Source: Promethearchaeota archaeon Loki_b32 | GTDB taxonomy: Archaea; Asgardarchaeota; Lokiarchaeia; Sigyniarchaeales; SOKP01 | Assembly (NCBI GenBank): GCA_005223125.1 | Contig: NJBH01000017.1 | Coordinates: forward strand, 19,891-83,890 | DNA length: 64,000 bases | Reading direction: 5' to 3' | Part shown: positions 14,297-15,477 of the stretch, piece by piece | How positions within the stretch are numbered: the stretch's first letter is position 1 | Layout of the letters: each line of letters starts with the position of its first letter | The notes under the pieces: model-generated | Databases searched by the model: none | Seen by the model: only the letters and a program-made list of their open reading frames with translations | What the model was told of the DNA's origin: nothing | Made by a program: the position numbers and the translations under genes

Positions 14297-14320
14297 GAGC
14301 ATTTGAATGTGAATGAATTT

Positions 14321-14944
14321 ATGAAACCATGGTTATTTGACATATTAGCATGTCCTATTGATAAACAATTTCCATTAAAATTATATATTTTTTCTTTTGA
14401 AAATAAACCAGAAGAATTTCAATCTATTATTGATATTTATAAAAACAGAGATATCAACATTATTAAAAAAGAAAAAATAATTGAGGTTTTTCAAGAAAAT
14501 GACGAATATTTCTTAAGGGATAACATAGTCATTGAAAAAACCAAACTTAAATCCTATCTTGAGTTAATAATTTCGAGTATAAATGAATTTGAAAATGTCT
14601 TTAATAATTCTACAAACCAATTGAGTAAAAAAAGTTTTCAAATCATAAATTCTGAAGTTAAATCTAAAATTTTAGAACTTTTTAAAGATTTAAAATTCCA
14701 TCATATTGAAGATATATTTCCTGAGTTATATTTTATAAATAAAGTAAAATTAGACATTGAAATTGAATCAGGTATATTATTTTGCAGCAAATGTAACCGT
14801 TGGTATCCTATTATAGATACAATTCCACAGATGCTCCCTGATAAGTATCGTGATGAAAGAAAAGAAATTGAATTCCTTGAAAGCAATAAAAATTTATTAG
14901 ATGAAAAATTTTTTAATCAAGATCTTAAACCATTTAATATTTAA
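14321..14944 (+). CDS. trm112: Trm112 family methyltransferase activator with large insertion
   Basis: MKPWLFDILACPIDK ... EIESGILFCSKCNRWYPIIDTIPQMLPD; ATG at 14321 preferred. Confidence 0.85.
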   Translation: MKPWLFDILACPIDKQFPLKLYIFSFENKPEEFQSIIDIYKNRDINIIKKEKIIEVFQENDEYFLRDNIVIEKTKLKSYLELIISSINEFENVFNNSTNQLSKKSFQIINSEVKSKILELFKDLKFHHIEDIFPELYFINKVKLDIEIESGILFCSKCNRWYPIIDTIPQMLPDKYRDERKEIEFLESNKNLLDEKFFNQDLKPFNI

Positions 14945-14991: not shown

Positions 14992-15123
14992 AGCCCGGTG
15001 GTGTAGATTAATACATATATTATGTATTGAGTAAATTGGCCAAGCATTTGGGGCTTTGAACCCCGCGACCACGGTTCGAATATTAAAAAGGTTTCTGATT
15101 AATCGAAATTCCGTGCCGGGCTA
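14992..15123 (+). tRNA. tRNA-Gln(UUG) with two introns (15007-15036 at position 15/16; 15081-15109 at position 59/60)
   Basis: Removing both introns gives AGCCCGG TG GTGT AGTGGCCAA GCAT T TGGGG CTTTGAA CCCCG CGAC CACGG TTCGAAT CCGTG CCGGGCT A, with all four stems pairing and an A1-U72 pair. The T-loop intron forms a perfect BHB. Confidence 0.93.
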
Positions 15124-15477
15124 TTATTTTTAATAATACTACTTAAAAAAATTTTTCAATTGCCGGTATTTTTAATTTTTTCTTTTTGACTAAAAATTAA
15201 AAGTCATCAATTCAAGACTGATAATAATCTTGGTTATATCAATCTTTTTTATTTCGGAAGAGATAAAAATATAATTTTTGTTTAAAAAACGCTATTTTGT
15301 CACTGTTTGATTATTTAAAAATTTTAAAATTAACTCAATTCTTAATTTGTATTTATCATTTGATTATAAAAAATTTTAAATAAATCAAAAAAACCGAAAT
15401 TTATCTATAATAAGAAGAAAGATTTATTTGTCTTGTAAGTAAAATACTATTTAATTAAAATTAAAGAAAAGATTACA

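Follow-up and report, generated by a model that had tools for sequence, protein, structure and literature searches.

A tRNA-Gln(UUG) gene with D-loop and T-loop introns in a Promethearchaeota genome, and the intron combinations of its orthologues

The window analysed here, a 64-kb stretch of DNA from a Promethearchaeota (Loki-type) metagenome-assembled genome (MAG), contains a tRNA-Gln(UUG) gene that is interrupted twice, in the D-loop between positions 15 and 16 and in the T-loop between positions 59 and 60 (Table 1). We conclude that the locus is a real gene, and probably an essential one. From comparison with relatives and with the genome's set of splicing genes, its two-intron precursor is very probably spliced by EndA and RtcB to a 73-nt tRNA-Gln(UUG). 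An earlier note, made from the letters of the window, had proposed this gene and both intron sites, and our analysis arrived at exactly the same coordinates and, after splicing, at a perfect 73-nt cloverleaf. The window lies on contig C11 of an assembly of 4.13 Mb in 71 contigs that is rated 95.5% complete. The assignment of the DNA to Asgard archaea also held up; the close relatives of the EndA gene are mostly from Promethearchaeota/Promethearchaeia MAGs.

Table 1. Coordinates of the features discussed (window positions unless a contig of the genome, G000, is named)
Feature	Position	Strand	Description
ORF upstream of the tRNA gene	14303-14944	+	213 aa
tRNA-Gln(UUG) gene	14992-15123	+	three exons, two introns; unspliced length 132 nt
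exon 1	14992..15006	+	15 nt; acceptor 5' strand, U8, G9, D-stem 5' strand GTGT, A14, G15
intron 1 (D-loop, 15/16)	15007..15036	+	30 nt, A+T-rich
exon 2	15037..15080	+	44 nt; remaining D-loop, D-stem 3' strand, anticodon arm, 4-nt variable loop, T-stem 5' strand, T-loop through A59
anticodon TTG (UUG, glutamine)	15056..15058	+	U33 at 15055 just before
intron 2 (T-loop, 59/60)	15081..15109	+	29 nt, A+T-rich
exon 3	15110..15123	+	14 nt; U60, T-stem 3' strand, acceptor 3' strand, discriminator A73; CCA not encoded
T-rich run TTATTTTT	15124..15131	+	directly 3' of the discriminator; likely oligo-T transcription stop
EndA alpha	G000:C18:184174-184782	+	202 aa; best match Aeropyrum pernix EndA catalytic subunit 3p1z_B, E 2e-35
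EndA beta	G000:C2:78428-79045	-	205 aa; best match Methanocaldococcus jannaschii EndA
tRNA-Sec candidate (rescan)	G000:C57:28520-28639	-	boundaries approximate
initiator-like tRNA-Met candidate (rescan)	G000:C48:102863-102951	+	boundaries approximate

The restored tRNA and its visibility to standard finders

Joined in silico, the three exons form a sequence of 63% G+C, against 29.9% for the genome, which ARAGORN folds as tRNA-Gln(UUG) with all four arms intact. The fold contains no anticodon-loop intron, in agreement with the earlier claim that a canonical intron at 37/38 is lacking. The acceptor stem has 7 bp, the D-stem 4 bp, and the anticodon stem and T-stem 5 bp each; the anticodon loop is 7 nt long and carries U33 followed by UUG, and the core bases U8, A14, G18-G19 and the T-loop GTTCGAAT are all present. 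So is the combination of an A1-U72 pair with A73 that is typical for archaeal tRNA-Gln, the A1-U72 pair having a role in recognition by GatDE.

The gene is intergenic and lies downstream of an ORF on the same strand. A T-rich run also follows the gene in many of its orthologues, if not in all. No promoter could be defined, either in a bacterial-type scan of the locus or as a clear box common to the upstream regions of the orthologues. In some orthologues (L006, L010, L011, L014) the tRNA starts ∼8 nt past the stop codon of the upstream ORF, a spacing that may point to co-transcription with that gene or to a tRNA promoter within the ORF.

The standard finders do not see this gene. ARAGORN, run on the whole window with the intron search on and off, reported no tRNA at the locus, and neither did Rfam at its gathering score or, over 321 bases, at E<=10. 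ARAGORN likewise made no call on the unspliced locus by itself or on a form from which only the D-loop intron had been removed, and with the intron search on it miscalled the form lacking only the T-loop intron as an 89-nt tRNA-Ala(GGC). The suggestion that standard scans can miss such a gene was thereby confirmed for ARAGORN and Rfam. In this genome the tRNA that reads CAA is thus invisible to both programs, as are many other tRNAs. CAA is expected (codons uncounted) to be a common codon in a genome of 30% G+C.

The silence of the finders, together with the fact that the assembly is unclosed, would also be compatible with a decaying pseudogene that has received two insertions, CAA being read by another tRNA. 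We regard this reading as scarcely credible. BLAST with the spliced tRNA returned this locus and a diverged tRNA-Gln(CUG) paralogue on contig C22 and nothing else, and across the 71 contigs BLAST, ARAGORN, Rfam and the splice-and-rescan procedure described below all failed to turn up a second Gln(UUG) gene. The locus hence appears to be the only tRNA-Gln(UUG) gene of the genome. An intronless tRNA-Gln(UUG) elsewhere, which the earlier note had named as the mark of a pseudogene, is accordingly absent from the assembly as it stands. The paralogue, which has a 29-nt intron at 37/38 and another of 29 nt at 59/60, cannot read CAA by standard wobble rules. Moreover, the exons are nearly invariant over 30 species while introns and flanks diverge, and the splicing geometry of both inserts has been kept through compensatory changes. 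One second Gln(UUG) candidate did come up in the rescan, on contig C48, and turned out to be a mis-spliced variant of a class II tRNA-Leu.

A separate and unexpected observation concerns the base before the anticodon. C33 replaces U33 in 12 of the 30 syntenic orthologues, including those of the three closest relatives of this genome, as well as in its own tRNA-Gln(CUG) (G000:C22, L058). On the tree of the neighbouring genes the state of this base has changed at least 8 times, and the remaining exon sequence hardly varies. Where a CUG gene has a 37/38 intron, U33 forms a central-helix pair with the intron, and C33 disrupts it. U33 is near-universal in tRNAs and is found in the other reliably called tRNAs of this genome. 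The switching might reflect a relaxed requirement for U33, or editing.

Motifs at the two intron sites

The register of both introns was taken from canonical archaeal introns, in which each strand has a 4-nt central-helix strand followed by a 3-nt bulge; the cut was assumed to fall between bulge bases 2 and 3, and the register was checked on the 37/38 intron of the genome's tRNA-Gln(CUG). In this register the T-loop intron has an outer helix CACGG/CCGTG of 5 bp, which is the T-stem, a central helix TTCG/CGAA with four of four pairs, bulges AAT and ATT, each cut before its last base, and an inner helix ATTAA/TTAAT of 5 bp. It is a strict hBHBh' motif, and the description of it as a textbook bulge-helix-bulge (BHB) was upheld, the motif being kept in 17 distinct homologous sequences. 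These include CUG paralogues, with which the T-arm is held in common. Among them the outer helix is paired throughout (100%) and the central helix in 97%, and in six inner-helix pairs both bases have changed. Shuffles never attained the observed pairing or covariation score, and slid registers fall to 27-44% pairing; since the sequences are mutually related, the shuffle counts overstate their independence, and more weight should go to the slid-register control. RNAfold favors another register for this intron, with a central helix of 5 bp and a number of pairs equal to that of the BHB register.

The D-loop intron departs from this pattern. It has an inner hairpin of 10 bp with a 3-nt loop, and bulges AGA (A14 and G15 followed, after the cut, by A) and ATT. 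Its central helix, GTGT/GTAA, brings D-stem bases 10-13 against intron bases 25-28, and three of the four pairs form (G.A, U-A, G.U, U.G), the first being a G.A mismatch. With an outer helix of 0 bp it falls outside the strict hBHBh' class, and it belongs to the relaxed HBh' class, the 5' bulge A14-G15-i1 lying between the 3-bp central helix and the 10-bp hairpin and the 3' side being open. The earlier reading of a relaxed motif with a 10-bp hairpin was therefore correct and can be specified as HBh' with three of four central pairs. An alternative outer pairing that appears in the minimum-energy fold, of bases 8-11 with GCCA of exon 2, was discarded, as orthologues that carry A9 do not support it. 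Over 22 distinct sequences, compensatory changes have occurred in 8 of the 10 pairs of the inner helix. Pairs 2-4 of the central helix persist in 91-100% of the rows, by way of one-sided changes (G-C to G.U, U.G to U-A), and the first central pair (G10-i28) is unpaired in 17 of the 22.

In folding energy the full precursor stands out, being better than 200 of 200 shuffles (z -2.7). The single intron regions are unremarkable against shuffles (z -1.6 and -1.8), and our argument is consequently built on the restored tRNA and the comparison with relatives, not on energy.

Given how relaxed the first motif is, it could be argued that the T-loop intron alone is spliced, leaving a mature tRNA whose D-loop is enlarged by the 30-nt hairpin. 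Three of four central pairs, the missing outer helix and the absence of the central helix from the minimum-energy fold would all suit such retention, and tRNAscan-SE does leave D-arm inserts of this kind in "mature" Asgard tRNAs (10.64898/2026.10.13.758758). We nevertheless consider it quite improbable, on several grounds. First, one clade of orthologues precisely lacks the insert but has the same D-loop in every other respect. Secondly, the 3-nt 5' bulge, the pairing of intron bases 25-27 with D-stem bases 11-13 and a length of 29-31 nt have been kept despite divergence of the sequence, which is the constraint expected of an endonuclease substrate. Thirdly, a 30-nt hairpin between positions 15 and 16 would occupy the core formed by the D- and T-loops. 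Finally, an EndA that bears the Crenarchaea-specific loop (CSL) is known to cut D-loop introns (PMC3241643).

We thus favor removal of both introns. Transcription would yield a precursor of ∼132 nt with two endonuclease-type introns. The 59/60 intron, together with the T-stem and the first four T-loop bases, would form a strict bulge-helix-bulge, and the 15/16 intron would offer an HBh' substrate in which the 5' bulge is set between a weak 3-bp central helix and a long hairpin, with the 3' side open. A heterotetrameric (alpha-beta)2 EndA with a CSL/L1 loop in its catalytic subunit would cut in each bulge, RtcB would ligate the three exons, and RNase P, 3' trimming and CCA addition would produce the finished 73-nt tRNA. 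Glu-tRNA-Gln would then be amidated, as in other archaea. In this scheme we infer the transcription, the cleavage at the predicted sites, the ligation and the order in which the introns leave. Other types of interrupted gene were set aside: a split or permuted tRNA gene does not agree with three exons that are collinear on one strand within 132 nt, and group I and group II introns were ruled out on size and collinearity.

Intron combinations among the orthologues

A DNA search of 60 relatives recovered the gene in 35 of the 36 genomes of the same genus, and the spliced tRNA was aligned to every locus with a small spliced-alignment script. All of the 30 best loci lie directly downstream of the same two genes (58-94% amino-acid identity) and are therefore orthologues. 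Their exons are identical or nearly so; their introns and flanks diverge. Three intron sites, 15/16, 48/49 and 59/60, occur in five combinations. Introns at 15/16 and 59/60 are found in 7 of the 30 loci (this genome and six others), at 59/60 only in 4, at 15/16 and 48/49 in 13 plus one locus that is cut by a contig end, at all three sites in 2, and at 15/16 only in 2. Loci that are non-syntenic, or whose synteny was unchecked, add one 59/60-only gene, two 15/16-only genes and several without introns.

Alleles that lack an intron provide a direct view of the exon junctions. The 15/16 intron is precisely absent from four orthologues (G002, G025, G024 and G019), and the 59/60 intron from two (G012 and G006) and from matching loci of G009 and G028 whose synteny was unchecked. 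In these alleles the contiguous sequence equals the predicted junctions, GTGTAG-TGGCC and TTCGAA-TCCGTG. It follows that the D-loop boundary is uniquely fixed, and that the T-loop boundary is fixed too in alleles whose intron starts with A.

An alternative reading takes the inserts for small mobile elements (MITE-like or homing inserts) that tRNA splicing leaves in place. Presence and absence do vary among the orthologues, with at least 3 changes for the 59/60 site, and two species share an identical 29-nt T-loop insert while their other introns differ. Against this, terminal inverted repeats and target-site duplications are lacking, removal of the inserts restores the exact orthologous sequence, and no further copy of either intron was found in the genome, where BLAST gave only chance-level matches of 14-16 nt. 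We judge this reading highly improbable. Even if the inserts did move as DNA, the transcript would still have to be spliced, and this reading is thus less a competitor of the splicing of both introns than a complement to it.

A quick tree built from the two neighbouring proteins requires at least one change for the 15/16 site, two for 48/49 and three for 59/60. A three-intron ancestor followed by losses fits these data as well as repeated gains. It could also be hypothesized that the 59/60 intron entered the same site more than once, in an ongoing site-specific turnover, rather than descending from a single ancient intron with repeated losses; we hold this to be unlikely. Repeated entry might proceed, for example, through a reversed cleavage-ligation reaction or through conversion from the CUG paralogue. 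If it were true, the locus would be a natural system for how such introns arrive, a matter left open by a 2026 preprint on Asgard tRNAs (10.64898/2026.10.13.758758).

Two further features of the series deserve mention. The 30-nt intron at 48/49, between the variable loop and the T-stem (L007, L009, L012, L013, L015, L017-L019, L021, L022, L024-L029), has a BHB register that uses bases 43-46 of the anticodon stem (its 3' strand) as central helix, which means that the precursor must refold before it is cut. The three-intron orthologues L017 (G032) and L027 (G001) are the ones with the identical 59/60 intron; between the two, ∼8 of the 30 positions of the 48/49 intron and 2 of the D-loop intron are different. 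The identity could be due to recent transfer or conversion, or to strong constraint.

tRNA census, splicing enzymes and known systems

ARAGORN with the intron search found 23 tRNAs in the whole genome, some of them dubious, and Rfam found 21 above its cut-off, where 40-odd would be expected of a typical archaeon. Because of this shortfall a BHB-guided splice-and-rescan was run, in which BHB-like candidates were listed, up to three were removed per region, and ARAGORN was run again. The regional G+C filter, which drops the Gln(UUG) locus, was left out, and the inner-helix rule was relaxed. A clustering of G+C-rich islands was also tried for hidden tRNAs and abandoned as too unspecific (2,143 clusters). 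The rescan picked up the Gln(UUG) gene together with about 20 more interrupted tRNA genes. The merged census holds 32 G+C-rich tRNA loci, with no intron in 10, one in 11, two in 10 and three in 1; D-loop and 59/60-type sites recur across it. At least 22 tRNA genes of the genome thus bear introns, 11 of them two or three. These figures come from a rough census and should be read with some caution: intron boundaries are only approximate, not every tRNA identity is certain, and several isoacceptors are missing (no His, Cys, Tyr, Phe and others). The reversed genome, put through the same pipeline, gave 0 tRNAs although the numbers of candidates (795,697 against 801,699) and of variants (114,726 against 117,802) were similar; the real genome had 81 hits, in 16 regions. 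The rescan also listed a candidate tRNA-Sec with two introns (D-loop and T-arm region) and a candidate initiator-like tRNA-Met with two introns and an encoded CCA at its end.

The genome encodes two EndA paralogues, alpha and beta, and a single RtcB gene. EndA alpha retains the Tyr-His-Lys residues and aligns with 3p1z_B ungapped through the CSL (L1 type), with K60 and R62 opposite K44 and R46; EndA beta has Ser in place of the catalytic His. By its sequence, therefore, the enzyme is classified as the (alpha-beta)2 type, with a catalytic alpha subunit that has the CSL/L1 loop and the K44 equivalent and a beta subunit without the His. In Crenarchaeota it is this loop that gives EndA its broad specificity. 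The EndA of A. pernix cuts a D-loop intron and relaxed motifs, and depends on the CSL and on K44 to do so (Hirata et al., PMC3241643), and (alpha-beta)2 EndA with an L1 loop has been described from Asgard archaea (Kaneta et al. 2018, PMC5829648). The earlier note, which asked for a classification of EndA, had reasoned that introns at such sites need an endonuclease of broad specificity, and a two-subunit EndA with a CSL/L1-type loop fits that need.

Much of this has precedents. Earlier work on Asgard archaea has described multi-intron tRNA genes with non-canonical sites, missed D-arm introns and (alpha-beta)2 EndA with an L1 loop (PMC5829648, PMC11291895, 10.64898/2026.10.13.758758). Kaneta et al. 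noted that incomplete Asgard tRNA sets pointed to undetected disrupted genes (PMC5829648). In Atabeyarchaeia and Freyarchaeia, 92-95% of the tRNA genes have introns and more than half of the genes have several (Valentin-Alvarado et al. 2024, PMC11291895). The 2026 preprint, which covers 90 Asgard genomes, describes hidden D-arm introns at BHB motifs and a two-subunit EndA that is widespread; Loki-type lineages are not named in its main text (10.64898/2026.10.13.758758). The present genome resembles those cases in that short introns of ∼20-35 nt at non-canonical sites, often two or more per gene, interrupt the majority of its tRNA genes, in that D-arm introns escape standard annotation, and in its BHB-type boundaries and two-subunit EndA. 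It differs in being a Promethearchaeota MAG, and in that the census here is rough and incomplete. Particular to our case is the series of 30 syntenic orthologues within one genus, with five intron combinations.

Outside the Asgard archaea the closest parallels are in Thermoproteales and other Crenarchaeota (Marck and Grosjean 2003; Sugahara 2007, 2008; PMC4090602), with which the locus shares the 59/60 and D-loop sites, the occurrence of strict hBHBh' alongside relaxed HBh' or hBH motifs, and a predicted dependence on (alpha-beta)2 EndA with the CSL; 59/60 is a listed non-canonical site, and the hBH and HBh' motifs are established (PMC4090602). The phylum is a different one, however, and the genome is mesophile-like with 30% G+C. 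Thermoproteales moreover have families of transposed introns, whereas neither intron sequence recurs in this genome. The pre-tRNA-Thr2(UGU) of A. pernix (PMC3241643) likewise combines a D-loop intron with a CSL-bearing heterotetrameric EndA, here predicted from sequence, but its D-loop intron is by description a canonical BHB, unlike the present one with its central-helix mismatch and no outer helix. Lastly, a 31-nt T-loop intron in the tRNA-Sec of Lokiarchaeota (PMC4989117) is a similarly short T-loop intron in a Loki-type tRNA. It concerns another tRNA and was reported as a single intron, whereas the rescan suggests two in the tRNA-Sec candidate of this genome.

In conclusion, the locus is a clean further example of a described Asgard type and leaves the current picture of archaeal tRNA splicing unchanged. 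The 30-orthologue series could serve for studies of how endonuclease-type introns are gained and lost and, as a strict and a relaxed motif occur together in a single precursor, of the limits of the substrates that a CSL-bearing EndA accepts. Since ARAGORN and Rfam miss this tRNA and many others of the genome, apparent gaps in the tRNA sets of Loki-type MAGs stem from the finders and not from biology. With this locus, a genus of Promethearchaeota joins the Asgard lineages in which tRNA genes rely heavily on EndA and RtcB.
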